Shown: piece by piece, positions 9,528-46,704 of the stretch
Layout of the letters: each line of letters starts with the position of its first letter
How positions within the stretch are numbered: the stretch's first letter is position 1
Assembly: GCA_035455205.1 (NCBI GenBank)
Contig: DATIFM010000008.1
Location: 13,146 to 77,145 of the forward strand
Length of the DNA: 64,000 nucleotides
DNA from: Candidatus Bilamarchaeum sp.
Lineage (GTDB): Archaea; Micrarchaeota; Micrarchaeia; Anstonellales; Bilamarchaeaceae
Direction of reading: 5' to 3'
The notes under the pieces: generated by a model
What the model saw: the letters and a program-made list of their open reading frames with translations, nothing else
What the model was told of the DNA's origin: nothing
Database searches by the model: none
Made by a program: the position numbers and the translations under genes

Positions 9528-9604
9528 CTTGCTCGCCCCCCAGGGCTCGCCACGGATTTGGCACTATTCATCATTTTTAAGCACTAATATACCAATTGAT
9601 AGCC

Positions 9605-10489
9605 ATGCACGCCCGCAGGCTCCCCTCTCCGGAAGAAAGGCTCAGGGCCAATTTCGCAAGGGCAGCGGTCCTGCTGTCATATATATCATGCAGGGAGGAG
9701 AAGGCGAAGTTTTCCGGGACGGAGCTTGCCAAAGATGATATTGCATTGCCGCCGAAGCCGGATTCCGCCCTGCCCGCGATAGGGAGGCTGGACCGGAGCC
9801 CCCGGAGCCTGCCGGGTGCGTGCCCGGATGGGATGGCCGAGCACAGCAATTTCTGCATGGACCGGTTCGAGGGCCGCCTAGTATATATAGAGGACGGCAG
9901 GCCCCACCCGCATTTTTTGAGGCCGGTGGATTTCACGAAAGTCAGGGCCCGGTCCGATTTCGGTGCCTTCCCTCAGGGATACCTGAGCCAGCTGGAATCC
10001 GCAACCGTCTGCTCCAACGCCGGAAAGCGCCTTTGCACCCTCAGGGAGTGGATGGAGGCCTGCACTGCGGGGGGAAAGAGGAGGTTCCCGTATGGCGAGG
10101 GCGCAAGAGGCAACATATGCAACTCGGGAAAGGGCCCGCACGTGATGAGCCTCTACCATGGCGGCAATCATCCGGGCCACTACTGGGACAACAATCAGTT
10201 CAACGACCCGATTCTGAACGTGACGCACGGCTACCTTGCAAGGACGGGGATGCACCCGGAGTGCGTGAGCGAGAGGGGCGAATCCGACCTCACAGGAAAT
10301 TTGCACGAGTGGGTGAGCGATGTAGGGGAAAACGGGATGGGGACTTTTGCAGGGAGCTGCTACTCGGACAACGACATGCCGTGCTCGTATTACGCGCAGG
10401 TGCATGCGAGGCAGTATCATGATTATTCGACTGGAGTCCGCTGCTGCAGCGGCAAGGAGGGAAAAAATGAGAAGAATCGCGTTCACTAG
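9605..10489 (+). CDS. FGE-sulfatase (formylglycine-generating enzyme-like) domain protein, probable lipoprotein, paralog 1
   Basis: GNLHEWVSD matches the GNxWEW hallmark of the FGE-sulfatase fold; Cys-rich; N-terminal hydrophobic segment ends in LSYISC (lipobox-like). ATG at 9605 preferred over the track's TTG at 9596. Confidence 0.6.
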   Translation: MHARRLPSPEERLRANFARAAVLLSYISCREEKAKFSGTELAKDDIALPPKPDSALPAIGRLDRSPRSLPGACPDGMAEHSNFCMDRFEGRLVYIEDGRPHPHFLRPVDFTKVRARSDFGAFPQGYLSQLESATVCSNAGKRLCTLREWMEACTAGGKRRFPYGEGARGNICNSGKGPHVMSLYHGGNHPGHYWDNNQFNDPILNVTHGYLARTGMHPECVSERGESDLTGNLHEWVSDVGENGMGTFAGSCYSDNDMPCSYYAQVHARQYHDYSTGVRCCSGKEGKNEKNRVH

Positions 10490-11402
10490 CATGGTTTTGC
10501 TCTCGTGCAACCGGGAGAAGGCTTACGAGGCGCCGCAGGGCACGCTGCCCGAGCCCTCGCGCACTTACGCGCCGATGGCGGAAGCGCCTATTGCGAGGCC
10601 GCCTGCGTCCCCGGCGCCGAAAAGGACTGCATCCGGAGCTTCCGCGGAGAAGCCGGAGGCCGGCACAAGCGCGGCAGCGGGTTCATCCTCGGATGCAGGG
10701 CCTGCCCTGGCCCTGAAACTGGGGACGGGTGCAGGATGCCCCGAAGGCATGGCGCGTACCGGGAGCTTCTGCATCGACCGGTTCGAGATAGCGCTGGAGG
10801 GGAAGGATGGCACGAGGTTCCGCCACAACGTTCATCCGCCAGAAGGCATGGACGGCCTCTCAGCCATATCCATCCCTGAAGTCAGCCCGCAGGGCCACCT
10901 CTCCCAGCCGCAGGCCATGAAGGCGTGCCAGAACGCCGGCAAGAGGCTCTGCACCTCGGACGAATGGGAGGCGGCATGCAAAGGGAAAGCGGGAAATCCG
11001 TTCCCCTACGGCGCGGCCATGGACGCGTCGGCCTGCAACGTCGACAAGAGGTCGCCCCACATCCTCGACTATTATTTCCCCGGCACGCCGCACCTCAAGA
11101 GGACAGGGAAGGAATTCAACGACCCGATGCTCCTCCTCGACCCGGCATACCAGACGAAAGCCGGCCGCATGCCTCTCTGCGTCACTCCCGAAGGCGTGTA
11201 CGACATGGACGGAAACATGAGCGAATGGGTGAGCGACTCCGAATCGAGGGGCGGGGTCACTTACGGCACCTTCCGCGGGGCGCCATTCTCGGGATACGCG
11301 AAGGAGGGGTGCGCGAGGAAAACCACAGCCCACGATGCAAGATATTACGATTACTCCACGGGGGCAAGGTGCTGCGCGGACATGCGGGGACGGGGTTTAT
11401 AA
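10467..11402 (+). CDS. FGE-sulfatase domain lipoprotein, paralog 2
   Basis: Start ATG at 10467 preceded by AGGAGGG; signal peptide MRRIAFTSMVLLSC (lipobox LLSC); GNMSEWVSD motif; clearly paralogous to the upstream gene (shared CxDRFE, QxxACxNAGKRLCT, EWxxAC blocks). Overlaps the upstream gene by about 23 nt. Confidence 0.65.
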   Translation: MRRIAFTSMVLLSCNREKAYEAPQGTLPEPSRTYAPMAEAPIARPPASPAPKRTASGASAEKPEAGTSAAAGSSSDAGPALALKLGTGAGCPEGMARTGSFCIDRFEIALEGKDGTRFRHNVHPPEGMDGLSAISIPEVSPQGHLSQPQAMKACQNAGKRLCTSDEWEAACKGKAGNPFPYGAAMDASACNVDKRSPHILDYYFPGTPHLKRTGKEFNDPMLLLDPAYQTKAGRMPLCVTPEGVYDMDGNMSEWVSDSESRGGVTYGTFRGAPFSGYAKEGCARKTTAHDARYYDYSTGARCCADMRGRGL

Positions 11403-11426
11403 ATACGAATATACACTTATTATAAC

Positions 11427-12254
11427 ATGCTTGAATTGAACAGGCCCCCCGGCAGGCGCGAGGAGAGGAACCTCATCGCCGGCCGCTACTGCCTCATCGA
11501 GGAGGTGGGGAGGGGGAGGCTCGGCTCCGTGCACAAGGCCCTCGACTGCGAGAGCGGGGGCACGGTCGCATTGAAGTTCGGCCTTGGGGACATGGGCTTT
11601 GCCCGCACTTCCCTCATGAACGAGGCAAGCGCGCTCGCCAGGGTGTCCCACGAAGGGGTGGCCGGCCTAAGGGGCGCCGGCGAGTCGGAAATGGGCCCTT
11701 TCATAGTCATGGATTATGTGCACGGACTGAACCTGAGGCAGCTCCTCAAAAGCGGGGGCATGCCTTCGGGGATGGCCATGAGGGCCATGGGCACGGTTTT
11801 GGGCGCCCTCGAATCCAGCCACCAGAGCGGCGTCGTCCACCGGGACATAAAGCCGAAGAACGTAATGATAGGGACGGACGGGAAGGCGAGGCTCGTGGAT
11901 TTCGGATTCGCCCGGGTGAGCGGGGAGAGCGATTACACCGAGAAGTTCACCCACGCCTTCGGCAACCCGATTTACAGCCCGCCCGAGGACCTCCGGGGAA
12001 ACGCGGACCCGAGGGTGGACATCTACTCGGCAGGCGTGATGCTTTACGAGCTCATGATAAACAGGAACAGGTTCTACTTCGTCAGCGCAATGAAGCTTCT
12101 CGAGCTCCGGACGAGCATCGGGAGGGCTTTCGGAGGGCGGAACGTGCCCGCAGACGCCCTCGAGATAGCGCACAAGGCGACGGAAAGGGACCCGGAAATG
12201 CGGTTCCAGAGCGCAAGGGCGATGAGGGAGGCCCTCGAGAACATCATCGTGTAG
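11427..12254 (+). CDS. Hanks-type serine/threonine protein kinase (kinase domain only, cytoplasmic)
   Basis: GRGRLGSV glycine loop, VALK lysine, HRDIKPKN catalytic loop, DFGFA and SPPE motifs. TATA-like TTTATAAA about 25 nt upstream. Confidence 0.85.
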   Translation: MLELNRPPGRREERNLIAGRYCLIEEVGRGRLGSVHKALDCESGGTVALKFGLGDMGFARTSLMNEASALARVSHEGVAGLRGAGESEMGPFIVMDYVHGLNLRQLLKSGGMPSGMAMRAMGTVLGALESSHQSGVVHRDIKPKNVMIGTDGKARLVDFGFARVSGESDYTEKFTHAFGNPIYSPPEDLRGNADPRVDIYSAGVMLYELMINRNRFYFVSAMKLLELRTSIGRAFGGRNVPADALEIAHKATERDPEMRFQSARAMREALENIIV

Positions 12255-12260
12255 GGTTTG

Positions 12261-12770
12261 TCATTGGGTGAGCCGCTTCATGCAGGAGGCGGCAAGGGAA
12301 ACCAGCGAAGAGTCGGCCATATCCTTCATGCCGGAAACCGTCTCGGCTATCCCCATCAGGACGATTTTTGAAAGGTCGCTGAATTCCGCGTCATGCGAGG
12401 CCCTGCGCAATATGTGCCCCAGCATCATCCGCGAAAGGGCAGGGTCGGCGCCGTCAACCGTGATTATGGCCATCGACACGAACATGCACGCGGCTATCTT
12501 CTCCTCCGCGGTCCTTTCCACGAAAGCCCCGAGCGCGGCCGCGGCGGAGCGGCGGTCGAGGGCGAGCGTCTGCGCGAAACCCTCTATGTCGAAATCGGTG
12601 TAGACGCTGTTCGGGTCCGAGCCGCCCTCGAAATGGGACATCGCCAGGGACACCAGGCGCTCGAGGGCGCCGGCGGGCGAGGAGCCGAGGGACTCGAGGA
12701 GAGCCTCGTGCCTGGAGCGCGCCTTCCTGCCGCGCATGTCTATTTCGAGGACCTTGCGCCCGTAAGCCAT
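12261..12770 (-). CDS. hypothetical protein (169 aa)
   Basis: ORF only; no motif recognised. Its antisense strand generates the spurious N-terminal extension of track ORF 12393..14543. Confidence 0.35.
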   Translation of the reverse strand: MAYGRKVLEIDMRGRKARSRHEALLESLGSSPAGALERLVSLAMSHFEGGSDPNSVYTDFDIEGFAQTLALDRRSAAAALGAFVERTAEEKIAACMFVSMAIITVDGADPALSRMMLGHILRRASHDAEFSDLSKIVLMGIAETVSGMKDMADSSLVSLAASCMKRLTQ

Positions 12771-12905
12771 GGATTGAAGGGGAAGCGCCGGTTTTTAGAT
12801 TCGAGCAGGAAAAAAGCGAAAATTTTCCGTGTACCGCACGCGGATTGCGGGAAAAATTGCAAAATTTCCAAACTCTTAAAAATCTTAAACGCGTGTGTGG
12901 TGCTC

Positions 12906-14543
12906 ATGAGAAACTTGATTATTTTGCTGGTTGCTTCGGTGATACTGATAAGCGGGTGCACGCAGGAGTGCCCCCAGGATGCCAAGCCGGTCTGCGGCTC
13001 TAACGGCGTCACTTACAAGAACGCCTGCCTCGCCCAGAAGGCCAACGCCACTGTCGTGAGCCAGGGCGCGTGCCCGGCAACGGCAGCGTGCACGGACTCC
13101 GACGGCGGAAAGGACATATTCACCGCAGGAAGCGTCACCGAGGGGGGTGCAGCGTCCGACGACATGTGCGCCAGCCCCGACAGCGTGCTCGAGAGGTTCT
13201 GCAAGGACTCCTCCGCGCTGTCTGAGAACCTGCCCTGCCCGTCAGGCTACCAGTGCGACGGCGGCAAATGCGTCGAAGTCGCCTGCTCTGACAGCGACGG
13301 CGGGATAAAGGAGGACGTGAAGGGGAGCGTAACCGCGGGAGGCAAGACCTCCGGCGACGAATGCGCCGACTCCGGCTCGGTCAAGGAATTCTACTGCGAC
13401 GGAGGAAAGGCGAACTCCAAGGAAATAGTGTGCGCCTCGGGAATGTCCTGCGTTAACGGCGCGTGCGTCAAGACGCTGTGCACCGACTCCGACGGCGGGA
13501 AGGACCCGGCGATAAAGGGCACCGCGAAGGCCGGAAGCGTCTCGCAGACGGACTCCTGCGACGGCAACGCCCTCACGGAATACTTCTGCGACGGCGACTC
13601 GGTTAAATCCGAGAAGGCCAACTGCCCGAGCGGCTACAGCTGCACGGACGGCAAGTGCGCAAAGAGCGTGTGCACGGACTCCGACGGCGGAAAGACCGCG
13701 GACGTGAAGGGCACCGTATCTTACGGGACCGCATCCCAGACGGACAGCTGCTACAGCAACACGCAGGTGCTCGAGTATTTCTGCGCCTCGGACGACAGCT
13801 ATACATCCGAGAAGATGAGCTGCGGGACGAACAGGGAATGCTTCGACGGCAAGTGCAGGAACGTCGAGTGCGCAGTCGACCTCCAGATAGTCGACGTGAG
13901 CGACAAGAGGGTCGAGCTCAAGGCCTTCGACGACTCGGACGAGCTGAAGCTCTACGAGAACGAAGTCGTTGAGATAAACGACGGCATGTTCCTCATGCTG
14001 GACACGATAAGCGGCAACCAGACGAGCCTGAAGCTGTTCAGGACGTTCGCGAAGCTGCAGGACAATGACGACGAGTGCAGCACGGACATCAGCGCAGGGG
14101 ACACCGAGAACGACCTCTGCGGAAGGAACACGGGCGACGTCGAGATAGGCAGCGTCAATGACAGCGGCGGATACGCGTTCCTCACCCTGCAGGAATACTT
14201 CGCAACGCAGTATTACTCGCAGGAGGGGAGCATAAAGAACTGGACCGACAACGTCCAGTGCCAGGACGACGAGGAGTCGTTCGACACGTATACGGCAGAC
14301 TTCTACCCGCGCCTCGACACGGCCTCATCGGGCCTCAACCTCGACGGAAGGAAGCTGAAGCTGTTCAGCCTCGACTCCAGGATAATCGAGGTCACCGGGG
14401 ACAGTGTCACACTCGACATTGACGGCGACGACGTCGAGCTGCAGGAGAGCGACACCTTCGAGTACCGCAACGAGCGGTACAGGGTGACGTCGCTCGAATT
14501 CGACGACGGCGGCCTCACGAGGATGGAAATCGAGCTCGACTGA
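12906..14543 (+). CDS. secreted lipoprotein with N-terminal Kazal-like domain, four tandem 6-Cys repeat modules and an acidic C-terminal domain
   Basis: Signal peptide MRNLIILLVASVILISGC (lipobox); Kazal hallmark PVCGSNGVTYKNAC; repeats beginning CTDSDGGKD / CSDSDGGIK at about 65-aa spacing; C-terminal about 230 aa rich in Asp/Glu. True start is ATG 12906, not the track's 12393. Confidence 0.7.
   Translation: MRNLIILLVASVILISGCTQECPQDAKPVCGSNGVTYKNACLAQKANATVVSQGACPATAACTDSDGGKDIFTAGSVTEGGAASDDMCASPDSVLERFCKDSSALSENLPCPSGYQCDGGKCVEVACSDSDGGIKEDVKGSVTAGGKTSGDECADSGSVKEFYCDGGKANSKEIVCASGMSCVNGACVKTLCTDSDGGKDPAIKGTAKAGSVSQTDSCDGNALTEYFCDGDSVKSEKANCPSGYSCTDGKCAKSVCTDSDGGKTADVKGTVSYGTASQTDSCYSNTQVLEYFCASDDSYTSEKMSCGTNRECFDGKCRNVECAVDLQIVDVSDKRVELKAFDDSDELKLYENEVVEINDGMFLMLDTISGNQTSLKLFRTFAKLQDNDDECSTDISAGDTENDLCGRNTGDVEIGSVNDSGGYAFLTLQEYFATQYYSQEGSIKNWTDNVQCQDDEESFDTYTADFYPRLDTASSGLNLDGRKLKLFSLDSRIIEVTGDSVTLDIDGDDVELQESDTFEYRNERYRVTSLEFDDGGLTRMEIELD
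13089..13875 (+). repeat. four tandem about 195-nt coding repeats (units start near 13089, 13284, 13479, 13671)
   Basis: DNA-level recurrence of tgcacggactccgacggcgg(a/g)aagga / tgctctgacagcgacggcggg; each unit encodes C-x-DSDGG-...-C-...-(F/Y)C-...-C-(P/A)SG(Y/M)xCxxGxC. Confidence 0.7.
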
Positions 14544-14576
14544 TTTTTTTTATTTTTATCATTTTCGGGGTCAATA

Positions 14577-14828
14577 ATGGACAGGCCGGCGATATACACC
14601 GAGAACAAGACGGTCATAGACCTCGGCGGCAGCCTGAGCTGGTTCGCCTGCATAATCCTTGCGATTCTGATTATCCATTTCAGCTGCGGCGCGGGCACGG
14701 CCACAGGCTACGTGGGCGAAATCTGCGCAAGGGGCTTCGGGATACAGGACTATCTCGGCCTCATATGCTGCGCACCGCTCTACCTGCTTGCCGTAATACT
14801 CGCAAGCGGCGGCCTCAGGATCTGGTAA
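14577..14828 (+). CDS. small membrane protein (83 aa, 2 TM), hypothetical
   Basis: Hydrophobic segments FACIILAILIIHF and LICCAPLYLLAVILASGG. Confidence 0.3.
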   Translation: MDRPAIYTENKTVIDLGGSLSWFACIILAILIIHFSCGAGTATGYVGEICARGFGIQDYLGLICCAPLYLLAVILASGGLRIW

Positions 14829-16053
14829 ACTTTTCGAGTTCTCTGAGGAGGAACGGGTCCAGCCTCGCAATCAAATGCTCCCGGACCTTGGCATCCTTGA
14901 AGCGGTAAGAGAGCACGGGCTCTCCCGTGTCCGTGACGAAGCGCGCCTTCCACTTGTTCTTGTATACGGTGAGCCCGGTCGTCCTGAAGGGGCCGCCGAG
15001 GCCGAAATCGAGCATCGCCACCCCTTTTTCGCACGCGTGCGATACGGAGAAATAATAGAGGGCCGAGCCGACGCCTGAGCGCATCAGCGCCCTGCTCCCT
15101 TCGAGCACGCCGATTGCCTTGAGCGCCAGAACCCGGCCGGGGCATTCTTGAACGAGGACTCCGCCGAGGGTGGCGTCGCCCCGGCAGGCAAAGAGAAGGT
15201 AACCGGCCCGGAACAGGGACTCCAGCTCGGAGAAAGTCGGCCTGACGGCGTTGCTCTCATGCATGGCCTCGAGCGTCGGCAGGTGCATGGATTTGTAGAA
15301 AAGGACGAAGTCATCCCGGTCCCGCGATATCCGGGGCATGAACCCTGCCTTCCGTATCTTGTTGATGTCGCTCCGGGCAGAGTGCGGGAGGCCCTTTTCG
15401 TATTCTGCGAGCGTGGCGGGTATGTCGATGATGGCGCGCACCGAGGACGGGGTGGCAAAATCGCCCCCTCCTGCGCCGGACTCCGGGACGGAGAGGATTT
15501 CGAGGTCCGCATCCCGGGCATCTTCGCGGCCTGCAGGCACGGCTCGCGCGGGGACGTCGAAGAGGGTTTCCGAAAGCAGGGCCGCCTTGTGCCCGGGAGT
15601 CCTGAGGAGCACAGTAAGGGGCAGGCCGCCGCACCGCCCCTTCGCGACATATGAGCGCGGGAAAAGCCGCGACTTGAGGCGGTACGCGGCCCCTGCAAGC
15701 ACAGGGAAGGAATTCCTCAGGGCAGAAAGGAGCGGCTCGGAGATTCCGGATCGGGGCCGCCCGAGGGCGTGAAGCCGGAGCCGGGCGGCGGCAGGCGCGG
15801 GGATGCCGCAGGAGACGGCGAGTCGCCCGGCCCTGTGCTCGCCGGCGAGTGAGGCAAGGGCGCATGCAAGTGCGTCCTCGTCGAAGCCGTCCGGAAATTC
15901 AAGGTTGGAGAGGGTGCCTCCTGCGAAGTCGAAAGTGAGCGCGTCGCGCTCGTCCCTTTTCACGGAAAAACGCCGGGCGCCCGGACCGCCGGTGCGGATC
16001 AGCTCCCGCCCCGGAGGCCCGCGCTCGTCGCCGACGAATCTGGCATATTGCAT
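14815..16053 (-). CDS. hypothetical protein with C-terminal FemAB/BioF2-like GNAT-fold acyltransferase domain
   Basis: Start placed at MQYARFVG (ATG 16053..16051); C-terminal pattern ALYYFSVSHACEKGVAMLDFGLGG...GLTVYKNKWKAR resembles the FemAB/CelD-type acyltransferase fold. The track's longer ORF (to 16482) is an antisense overlap with the leuA-like gene. Confidence 0.4.
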   Translation of the reverse strand: MQYARFVGDERGPPGRELIRTGGPGARRFSVKRDERDALTFDFAGGTLSNLEFPDGFDEDALACALASLAGEHRAGRLAVSCGIPAPAAARLRLHALGRPRSGISEPLLSALRNSFPVLAGAAYRLKSRLFPRSYVAKGRCGGLPLTVLLRTPGHKAALLSETLFDVPARAVPAGREDARDADLEILSVPESGAGGGDFATPSSVRAIIDIPATLAEYEKGLPHSARSDINKIRKAGFMPRISRDRDDFVLFYKSMHLPTLEAMHESNAVRPTFSELESLFRAGYLLFACRGDATLGGVLVQECPGRVLALKAIGVLEGSRALMRSGVGSALYYFSVSHACEKGVAMLDFGLGGPFRTTGLTVYKNKWKARFVTDTGEPVLSYRFKDAKVREHLIARLDPFLLRELEKFTRS

Positions 16054-16147
16054 AGTCGCATCCCGCGTGATAGTATCCCGTGAGAAGCTTAAAAGGCGCG
16101 CAGATATGTTTTTATTGCTCGGATGATATGTGAGAGCGGCGGGAACA

Positions 16148-17221
16148 ATGGCTTTGATGATACAGGACACGACGCTGAGGGAGGGACAGCAGACTGCGTT
16201 CGTGAGCTTCACCAGGGAGCAGAAGCTGGAGCTTGCCGCCATGCTCTCGGATTTCGGGGTGGACTTCATCGACATCATGCCCGCGGCCTCGCCGAGGGAG
16301 CAGGCGATGAACAAGGAGCTTAACGGCATGGGCCTGCGGCCGAATGTCGTCTCGCTCTGCCGCACCATGAAGGAAGACATAGACAAGGCAATCGAGGCCG
16401 ACGCGAAATGGGTCGGAGTGTTCCAGGGGACTTCCCAGATACACCTCGAGTCCAAGCTCAGGATGGACGAGGATGCCAGCATAAGGAAGATAGAGGAGGC
16501 GGTGTCCTACGCCGCATCGCGCGGCCTGAAGGCCCGATTCGGCCTCGAGGACGCCTCGAGGACATCATACGATTATTTGATAAGGACGTGCCGGGCCGCG
16601 AGGGACGCGGGCGCGTGCCGGATAACGCTCGCGGACACGCTCGGGGCGATGCGCCCGGACAGGATGAAGGAGCTTGTCGCGAAAGTGAAGGCCGAGGCCG
16701 GCCTCCCGATAGACGTCCATTGCCACAATGATTTGGGCCTCGCGCTCGCGAACTCGCTTGCCGCCTACGAGGCAGGGGCCTCCTGCGTGCACACGACGAT
16801 AAACGGCTGCGGCGAGAGGGTCGGGATAGTGAAGCTCGCCGAGCTCGTGATGGCGATGGAAATCCTCTATGGGGAGAGGCTGAACGTGAAAAAGGAGATG
16901 CTGTATGCGCTCTCCGAGAAGTTCTCGGAGTTCAGCGGCATCCCCACGTGCCCGCTCATGCCTGTCGTCGGCAAAAACGCGTTCAGGCACAAGAGCGGCA
17001 TCCATACCGCCGCGCTCCTGCGCGACAAGAGGACGTACGAGCTTTTCGAGCCGCAAAGCGTAGGCAACAGGCGAAGGTACATACTCGGCGAATACACCGG
17101 AAAGGCGCTCATGAAGCACCTCTCGGACAGCCTCCACATGAACCTGAGCGACGAGCAGATACAGAGGGAGCTGCGCAAGATAAAGGGAAAGGGCGGAGAC
17201 ATATTCGACTTCCGTGATTGA
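16148..17221 (+). CDS. 2-isopropylmalate / (R)-citramalate / homocitrate synthase family (short form without regulatory domain)
   Basis: LREGQQ motif (QDTTLREGQQTAFV), HMGL-like TIM barrel, HxH metal site (VHCHNDLG). 358 aa, so the LeuA C-terminal regulatory domain is absent. Confidence 0.85.
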   Translation: MALMIQDTTLREGQQTAFVSFTREQKLELAAMLSDFGVDFIDIMPAASPREQAMNKELNGMGLRPNVVSLCRTMKEDIDKAIEADAKWVGVFQGTSQIHLESKLRMDEDASIRKIEEAVSYAASRGLKARFGLEDASRTSYDYLIRTCRAARDAGACRITLADTLGAMRPDRMKELVAKVKAEAGLPIDVHCHNDLGLALANSLAAYEAGASCVHTTINGCGERVGIVKLAELVMAMEILYGERLNVKKEMLYALSEKFSEFSGIPTCPLMPVVGKNAFRHKSGIHTAALLRDKRTYELFEPQSVGNRRRYILGEYTGKALMKHLSDSLHMNLSDEQIQRELRKIKGKGGDIFDFRD

Positions 17222-46579: not shown

Positions 46580-46704
46580 GCCTCGGTAGCTCAGTCGGTA
46601 GAGCGGCTGACTGTTATCTTTTGGGAATGAACAGCCCGTTTTGGGGCGCCTTTTCCCAAAAGGCGCACATCAGCAGGCCGGAAGTTCAAATCTTCCCCGG
46701 GGCG
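46580..46704 (+). tRNA. tRNA-Asn (anticodon GUU) with a 52-nt canonical-position intron (46617..46668)
   Basis: GCCTCGGTAGCTCAGTCGGTAGAGCGGCTGACTGTTA [intron] ATCAGCAGGCCGGAAGTTCAAATCTTCCCCGGGGCG. Clean cloverleaf: 7-bp acceptor, D-arm GCTC/GAGC, anticodon stem GCTGA/TCAGC, T-arm GGAAG-TTCAAAT-CTTCC; intron between positions 37 and 38. Confidence 0.8.

Follow-up and report, generated by a model that had tools for sequence, protein, structure and literature searches.

A Kazal-like domain, an unnamed six-cysteine module in four copies and an acidic C-terminal domain make up a predicted Micrarchaeota lipoprotein

We analysed a 64-kb stretch of DNA from Candidatus Bilamarchaeum sp. (contig DATIFM010000008.1; the whole stretch is hereafter called the window), following up an original prediction that a gene at 12906..14543 encodes a Kazal-like domain, four tandem six-Cys repeats and an acidic C-terminal region. 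From end to end the product, of 545 amino acids (aa), shows 100% identity to a deposited protein (P0001, "Candidatus Bilamarchaeum sp.") from a metagenome-assembled genome (MAG) of the lineage Archaea; Nanobdellati (DPANN); Micrarchaeia; Anstonellales; Bilamarchaeaceae; the sole annotation of that protein is "Kazal-type serine protease inhibitor family protein". The gene has thus been deposited before and labelled by its Kazal domain, and its repeat module and C-terminal domain are unannotated. The enclosing open frame spans 12393..14543 (+); the gene's own start is an internal Met at 12906, shared at the equivalent position by the orthologues in an alignment. The gene is laid out as follows.

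12906..14543, + strand: gene for the Kazal-repeat lipoprotein (predicted), 545 aa; stop codon 14541-14543
12906..12959, + strand: signal peptide and lipobox, MRNLIILLVASVILISG followed by C, aa 1-18; hydrophobic core, invariant G17-C18
12960..13079, + strand: two-disulfide Kazal-like domain, aa 19-58; Cys22, 30, 41 and 56, predicted P1 Gln24
13089..13283, + strand: repeat unit 1, aa 62-126; six Cys, from repeat search and unit profile
13284..13478, + strand: repeat unit 2, aa 127-191; six Cys, from repeat search and unit profile
13479..13670, + strand: repeat unit 3, aa 192-255; six Cys, from repeat search and unit profile
13671..13868, + strand: repeat unit 4, aa 256-321; six Cys, from repeat search and unit profile
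13869..14540, + strand: acidic all-beta C-terminal domain, aa 322-545 (224 aa); conserved Cys322, 391, 405 and 452, from orthologue alignment and AlphaFold

The four tandem 195-nucleotide (nt) repeats of the original prediction, with their period of 195/195/192 nt, were recovered by both repeat search and unit-profile scores. A 23-nt core recurs at 13086, 13281, 13476 and 13668 (spacing 195/195/192 nt) with an identity of 78-96%, and the units read in frame as 64-66 aa, each opening with C-[TS]-D-S-D-G-G and each carrying six equally spaced Cys, so that the predicted Cys pattern and DSDGG start are seen in all four. The linker from Cys6 of one unit to Cys1 of the next is constant at 4 residues. 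Over their whole length the window units share 56-69% identity in DNA and 34-54% in protein, and are too diverged for Tandem Repeats Finder, which does not call the array at 13089-13875. When all six frames of the window are scanned with the unit profile, each of the four scores E 1e-19 to 3e-22 and nothing beyond them matches, which excludes chance and low complexity as sources of the array.

The copies are old. We found 197 homologues of the 545-aa protein, nearly all of the named ones from Micrarchaeota and labelled "Kazal-type serine protease inhibitor" or hypothetical; orthologues are mostly 539-552 aa long, with a single four-unit protein at each locus examined. A hidden Markov model of the unit finds exactly four units in every orthologue of about 545 aa, and in 63 of 63 orthologues with the C-terminal domain, and finds 4-12 in relatives that end with repeats. 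Copy number, which the original prediction thought worth comparing among relatives, is therefore constant at four in 63 orthologues and varies only in paralogous architectures (4-12, up to 28). Each window unit is closest to the unit in the same position of an orthologue, the same-position match winning 47, 45, 29 and 53 of 62 comparisons for units 1 to 4. Because the units are positionally orthologous and number four in 63 of 63 orthologues, we conclude that the array is ancient, that it predates the divergence of the family and that its copy number is fixed. We likewise conclude that the 545-aa architecture defines a conserved Micrarchaeota family. The original prediction had taken the combination of similar 5' ends and diverged interiors as the mark of a duplication array rather than low complexity; the array is indeed real, but as judged from these comparisons the DNA identity at the 5' ends reflects selection on the CxDSDGG motif and not recent duplication.

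The repeated module has no named family. It is defined by six Cys spaced about x25, x10, x11, x5 and x4 and by acidic residues at unit positions 4, 6, 26 and 36, a pattern to which all four window units conform. Against Pfam these units give only E 0.037-2.8, far short of the cut-offs and with no EGF or TNFR match, and 128 diverse units give scattered sub-threshold matches, the commonest being ADAMTS_CR_2 (9 of 128, best E 0.00098); by Pfam profile the units match none of EGF, TNFR, TIL, WAP, Dickkopf and other named Cys-rich repeats. NCBIfam has no match to the unit, and the best match in a profile search of the PDB has E 0.59. An AlphaFold2 model of the unit built on a 128-sequence alignment (mfae01c6a2a5d) is very confident, with a predicted local distance difference test score (pLDDT) of 97.5, and is all-beta with eight short strands; in Foldseek it has no PDB match at E<=0.001. 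CBM14 chitin-binding domains come top, though weakly (E 0.26 for Blo t 12, E 1.0 for Avr4), with template-modelling scores (TM) of 0.38-0.40. The novelty claimed for the module in the original prediction thus holds across Pfam, NCBIfam and the PDB, and neither an EGF- or TNFR-like identity, which would have made it unremarkable, nor a significant PDB relative of the single modelled unit emerged. A preprint on "cysteine-rich repeats" and horizontal gene transfer (bioRxiv 10.64898/2026.06.07.730663) was set aside as a description of the module, as it concerns fungal repeats.

The module is common elsewhere in archaea. Among 1.84 billion representative proteins the unit profile has 10,816 matches at E<=1e-3 and 4,010 at E<=1e-10; the details that follow come from the best 150 of the 10,816. 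Among the matches listed, carriers hold 3-28 copies in proteins of up to 3,760 aa, and the large ones (1,100-3,760 aa) also contain Laminin_G_3, CARDB, PKD, DUF11, S_layer_C and Dockerin domains. The named carriers among them are Anstonellales/Micrarchaeota, Woesearchaeota, Nanoarchaeia, Diapherotrites and Altiarchaeota, so that the search in other archaea suggested with the original prediction finds 10,816 clusters and, in the matches listed, five DPANN/Altiarchaeota lineages. This sequence distribution leads us to conclude that surface proteins across DPANN use the unnamed 65-aa module as an extracellular building block. A protein-pattern scan of viruses, an insensitive test, found no relative; 16 DNA-pattern matches in IMG/VR were rejected as viral modules and attributed to chance, as 0 of 16 match the unit profile, again by an insensitive test.

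Conservation within the module points to its disulfides and to a cluster of acidic residues. All six Cys are present in 1432 of 1474 complete units; C4 and C6 are jointly missing in 16 of the 1474 units and C2 and C5 jointly in 1. Because these Cys are lost in pairs we propose C4-C6 and C2-C5 disulfides, leaving C1-C3 as the remaining pair; the map is probably C1-C3, C2-C5, C4-C6, with C2-C5 and C1-C3 resting on very few cases. Unit positions D4, D6, D26 and E36 are Asp or Glu in 98.1-99.9% of 1385 distinct units, and the rare units that lose one tend to lose others (odds ratios 35-142, p 3e-5 to 6e-12, values that overstate independence among what are related sequences). This co-loss suggests that Asp4, Asp6, Asp26 and Glu36 form one putative site, and because the module is a small non-enzymatic extracellular domain the simplest ligand would be a divalent cation of the Ca2+ type. 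The Ca binding that the original prediction thought possible for the DSDGG start thereby gains indirect support. The unit consensus, C-x-D-[ST]-D-G-G-x-[DN], carries Gly, not Asp, in the fifth position of the motif and so lacks the DxDxDG signature, and neither the four window units nor the 128 diverse units match Pfam TSP_3. Positions 37 and 38, beside the acidic cluster, form an aromatic pair (Y, F or W, 77-78% each).

The acidic C-terminal region noticed in the original prediction is strongly so, with an isoelectric point of 4.05 and a net charge of -35 over aa 322-545. Its AlphaFold2 model (mb6814e904581; aa 318-545; 46 orthologues) has pLDDT 96.1 and a predicted TM (pTM) of 0.90 and is all-beta with several very long strands; according to this model the region folds confidently into a domain and is no low-complexity tail. 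The domain has no PDB sequence match, and Foldseek returns nothing significant for the model (best PDB match E 0.022, TM 0.14; best BFVD match E 3.7e-3, TMq 0.18). An internal duplication was rejected, as none is detectable between the two halves (hhalign probability 1.3%). A homologue search with the C-terminal alignment returned only two short fragments, which says little about the domain's distribution. Separately, aa 494-539 (14385..14522) have sub-threshold matches to phage head-tail proteins (PF05354 Phage_attach, E 0.019-0.066; phrog_82 "head closure Hc1", E 6.6e-4), which may reflect a common small beta-barrel shape.

At the other end, the protein begins MRNLIILLVASVILISGC, a Sec-type signal peptide whose hydrophobic core (mean Kyte-Doolittle 3.2) is followed by the [GAS]-C typical of a lipobox lipoprotein; neither G17 nor C18 varies among 25 aligned orthologues, and 151 of 249 module-carrying proteins have a lipobox-like end. 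The Kazal region that follows passes the Pfam gathering cut-offs of both Kazal_1 (PF00050, 28.6 bits against 21) and Kazal_2 (PF07648, 26.7 against 22.8), and most homologues of the 545-aa protein carry precomputed Pfam Kazal matches. Its best PDB sequence match is the leech tryptase inhibitor LDTI (E 9e-7, aa 21-58), with LEKTI, ovomucoid, rhodniin and others also aligning, and CPQDAKPVCGSNGVTYKNAC fits the Kazal core motif C-x7-C-G-x-[DN]-G-x-T-Y-x-[NS]-x-C and aligns to solved Kazal structures. The resemblance thus survives profile searching, which the original prediction had held might fail. Instead of the six Cys of canonical Kazal domains (disulfides I-V, II-IV and III-VI) it has only Cys II, III, IV and VI (C22, C30, C41 and C56); Cys I and Cys V are absent from every orthologue aligned, the Cys V position being Gln, Ala, Thr, Ser, Asp or Asn. 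We conclude from the alignment that the domain is a two-disulfide Kazal variant. The original prediction was therefore right to call the N-terminal domain Kazal-like and atypical, while its count of five Cys falls to four, Cys18 being the lipobox Cys. P1 is Gln24 by alignment to LDTI, and across 75 family members P1 is D in 22, Q in 9, G in 9, S in 7, C in 7, T in 6, E in 6, A in 4, N in 2, and K, P and M in 1 each. The Kazal motif opens 112 of the 249 module-carrying proteins; searching for homologues of the 46-aa Kazal region gave no candidates. A 2026 survey of archaeal folds places Kazal-type inhibitors among the fold groups confined, within archaea, to DPANN (PMC13607799), which bears out the view that Kazal domains are rare in archaea; the architecture is not peculiar to one genome, given some 197 homologues.

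The gene's flanks and neighbours are the following.

9596..12254, + strand: two genes with FGE-sulfatase domains and a Ser/Thr protein kinase gene, a cluster further upstream
12261..12770, - strand: divergent gene, 169 aa, the upstream neighbour; no Pfam or PHROG match
12870..12889, + strand: AT-rich TATA-like element CTTAAAAATCTTAAAC, about 25 nt 5' of the ATG, read from the sequence
14544..14572, + strand: oligo-T tracts TTTTTTTTATTTTTATCATTTT directly 3' of the stop codon, read from the sequence and also flagged by Tandem Repeats Finder
14577..14828, + strand: gene for a small membrane protein, 83 aa, the downstream neighbour, with the strictly conserved motif IIHFSCGAGTATGY

The TATA-like element, within which Tandem Repeats Finder flags AAAATCTTA x2.2, lies in a 135-nt intergenic region common to the Kazal-repeat gene and the divergent gene; from the usual archaeal distance between TATA box and start we infer that it is the promoter of the Kazal-repeat gene. 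The oligo-T tracts resemble an archaeal terminator and would act as one. The product of the divergent gene has a homologue of 59% identity in the same position upstream of one orthologue (P0004; L007 4350-4739), and none at that position in more distant genomes. The 83-aa membrane protein, which has no Pfam or PHROG match, is 66% identical to the product of the gene directly downstream of another orthologue (P0021, L001) and 76% identical to that of a gene in the Micrarchaeia MAG STL-MIC1 (L005). A scan of genome contigs with it found 2 loci, and its gene adjoins the Kazal-repeat gene in 2 of 7 distinct orthologue contexts. In L005 (2303..4255) the FGE-kinase cluster recurs, with the small membrane gene immediately after it and no Kazal gene; compared with L005, the divergent and Kazal-repeat genes together look like a segment inserted or deleted between kinase and small gene.

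Leucine-biosynthesis-type genes lie downstream of the Kazal-repeat gene. A conserved operon partner or a protease neighbour was ruled out, as no protease and no constant neighbour occurs in the 7 orthologue contexts. In two related genomes (L003 4038..5975 and L010 3263..4972) an unannotated gene for 569-645 aa lies on the same strand 25-28 nt upstream of the orthologue, with which it could form an operon; the window has no equivalent. Further observations in the window concern a 555-aa open reading frame (ORF) at 14815..16482 (-), with no Pfam or PHROG match, whose 5' end overlaps the start of an HMGL-like ORF (leuA/homocitrate synthase-type, 16130..17221) by about 350 nt; because of this overlap its true start is probably further downstream. 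A 125-nt tRNA gene at 46580..46704 (+) (Rfam RF00005, 59 bits), missed by ARAGORN in its default mode, presumably carries an archaeal intron.

We suggest, with an even chance of being right, that the 545-aa protein is a conserved Micrarchaeota lipid-anchored stalk-and-head protein of the cell envelope. In Micrarchaeota an S-layer covers a single membrane, with a periplasm-like space between (bioRxiv 10.1101/2021.04.28.441871). Cys18 would be lipid-modified and anchor the protein on the membrane's outer face; the four three-disulfide modules, each holding a divalent cation of the Ca2+ type through Asp4, Asp6, Asp26 and Glu36, would form a semi-rigid stalk; and this stalk would hold the acidic C-terminal head off the membrane, into or through the space beneath the S-layer, where the head might bind an envelope component or the surface of a host cell. 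The 65-aa module would serve much as repeats of the cbEGF or cadherin type serve in the surface proteins of eukaryotes. The high model confidence and the near-universal retention of all six Cys argue that the module is an independently folding unit, and the constant 4-residue linkers, the range of 3-28 copies and the co-occurring surface-type domains argue for stalk-like use. Several points weigh against this picture. Both the acidic clustering and the disulfide map are read from conservation and co-loss, in few cases and in related sequences, and AlphaFold models no ions; the two novel domains have no structural relatives, which makes the binding head a guess from architecture; the position of the Kazal domain beside the anchor is specifically predicted neither by a stalk nor by an inhibitor; and the gene neighbourhoods name no functional partner, since neighbours differ across the 7 distinct orthologue contexts.

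The Kazal domain raises the possibility, which we consider unlikely, that the protein is instead a membrane-tethered true Kazal inhibitor whose loop C22-P-Q24-D blocks a serine protease of its own envelope, of the host or of a competitor, the repeats and head serving only for position or targeting. Besides the two Pfam matches, the frequency with which Kazal motifs open module-carrying proteins and the NCBI annotation of the family as inhibitor, the length of the loop and the scaffold C-P-x...P-V-C-G-S-x-G-x-T-Y-x-N-x-C are identical to those of LDTI. The reactive-loop residues are hypervariable among orthologues, as is reportedly typical of Kazal inhibitors from Laskowski's ovomucoid work. 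The P1 residue, however, is mostly Asp, Gln, Gly or Ser, which only Glu/Asp-specific proteases would fit; in the ovomucoid P1-variant series such residues are said to be among the weakest for enzymes of the trypsin, chymotrypsin, elastase and subtilisin types. Further, every orthologue lacks one of the three canonical disulfides, no protease gene occurs among the conserved neighbours in the orthologue contexts examined, and about 90% of the conserved protein is non-Kazal and conserved as well as the Kazal domain. With P1 mostly D/Q/G/S/T/E and K only once in 75, and with no Cys I-Cys V disulfide, a role for the Kazal domain in structure or binding is more probable than one as a broad inhibitor of serine proteases.

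Closer to the stalk-and-head protein is a spacer or S-layer tether of the pseudoperiplasm, a lipid-anchored rod that reaches from the membrane across to the S-layer and docks its acidic head there through cation bridges, with no role in host contact or inhibition. Such a tether suits the Micrarchaeota S-layer and periplasm-like space, the single four-unit protein of near-constant, ruler-like length (mostly 539-552 aa) at each locus, the acidity of the head and the S_layer_C domain of one module protein; the S-layer protein is unrelated, though, and orthologue contexts show no synteny with S-layer genes, so that we think it quite unlikely, while noting that it overlaps the stalk-and-head protein and differs only in partner. 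Improbable, finally, is a multivalent and possibly cation-dependent lectin for host or own surface glycans, its units being distant kin of CBM14/peritrophin: the best PDB matches in Foldseek are CBM14-type (including Avr4 with a chitin hexasaccharide, root-mean-square deviation 2.2 Å over 39 columns; Foldseek probability 0.66-0.69), unit and CBM14 both have six Cys in about 65 residues, the aromatic pair stands beside the acidic cluster, and "chitin-binding domains" are listed next to "Kazal-type protease inhibitors" among DPANN-unique fold groups (PMC13607799), but the Foldseek E-values are not significant and the TM low, no unit matches Pfam CBM_14 even at E<=1, the Cys spacing is unlike the CBM14 consensus, and that listing, though it may cover such proteins, is not tied to the 545-aa protein.

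Extending the stalk-and-head proposal, the module may be a cation-binding extracellular domain with a fold that the PDB lacks, the functional counterpart in archaea of cbEGF or cadherin repeats, and the lipoprotein a core Micrarchaeota factor for contact with host or S-layer; this wider claim we regard as unlikely. Attachment to other cells is the way of life of DPANN archaea, whose surface and contact proteins are almost undescribed. Here a module with no Pfam, NCBIfam or PDB counterpart occurs in more than 10,000 clusters, and naming it would improve the annotation of many DPANN surface proteins; in Micrarchaeota the Kazal fold is its regular N-terminal partner. Both the 65-aa disulfide module and the 545-aa lipoprotein are tractable targets for structural and binding studies.

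Among known systems, the window Kazal domain is closest to LDTI (PDB 1an1/2kmo), with which it shares the scaffold CPxxxKPVCGSxGxTYxNxC and a Cys II-Cys III spacing of 8 over 38 aligned residues. It is also reminiscent of LEKTI/SPINK5 domain 6 (1uvf/1uvg), which likewise has only two disulfides; the two-disulfide domains of LEKTI lack a different pair from the Cys I-Cys V of the window domain. Unlike these inhibitors it has Gln at P1, and the family mostly Asp, in place of Lys, Arg or Leu, and it is archaeal, predicted to be lipid-anchored and followed by unrelated modules.

The module itself recalls cbEGF, LDL-receptor class A and thrombospondin type 3 repeats, small three-disulfide modules with an invariant acidic cluster that stand head to tail (3-28 copies for our module) with short linkers in surface proteins, in a rod predicted here to be rigidified by cations. 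It differs from all three in having no sequence or profile similarity to them, in its greater length of 65 aa, in its all-beta fold of eight short strands, and in the motif C-x-D-[ST]-D-G-G-x-[DN], which is not a DxDxDG, cbEGF or SDE signature; cation binding by the module is a prediction. CBM14/peritrophin-A domains (Blo t 12, 2mfk; Avr4, 6bn0) are similar in size, have six Cys and give the best, though non-significant, fold match, but they stand apart in TM (0.38-0.40), E-value (>= 0.26), Pfam profile (no CBM_14 match) and Cys spacing.

Other DPANN archaea carry large repeat-rich surface proteins, such as the SPEARE protein of Nanohaloarchaeum antarcticus. These too belong to symbiotic DPANN lineages and are secreted or anchored multi-domain proteins with adhesion-type domains, as are the module carriers of 1,100-3,760 aa. 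In contrast to them the window protein is small, at 545 aa, and has a fixed architecture in which the repeats stand between a Kazal domain and a C-terminal domain of its own.

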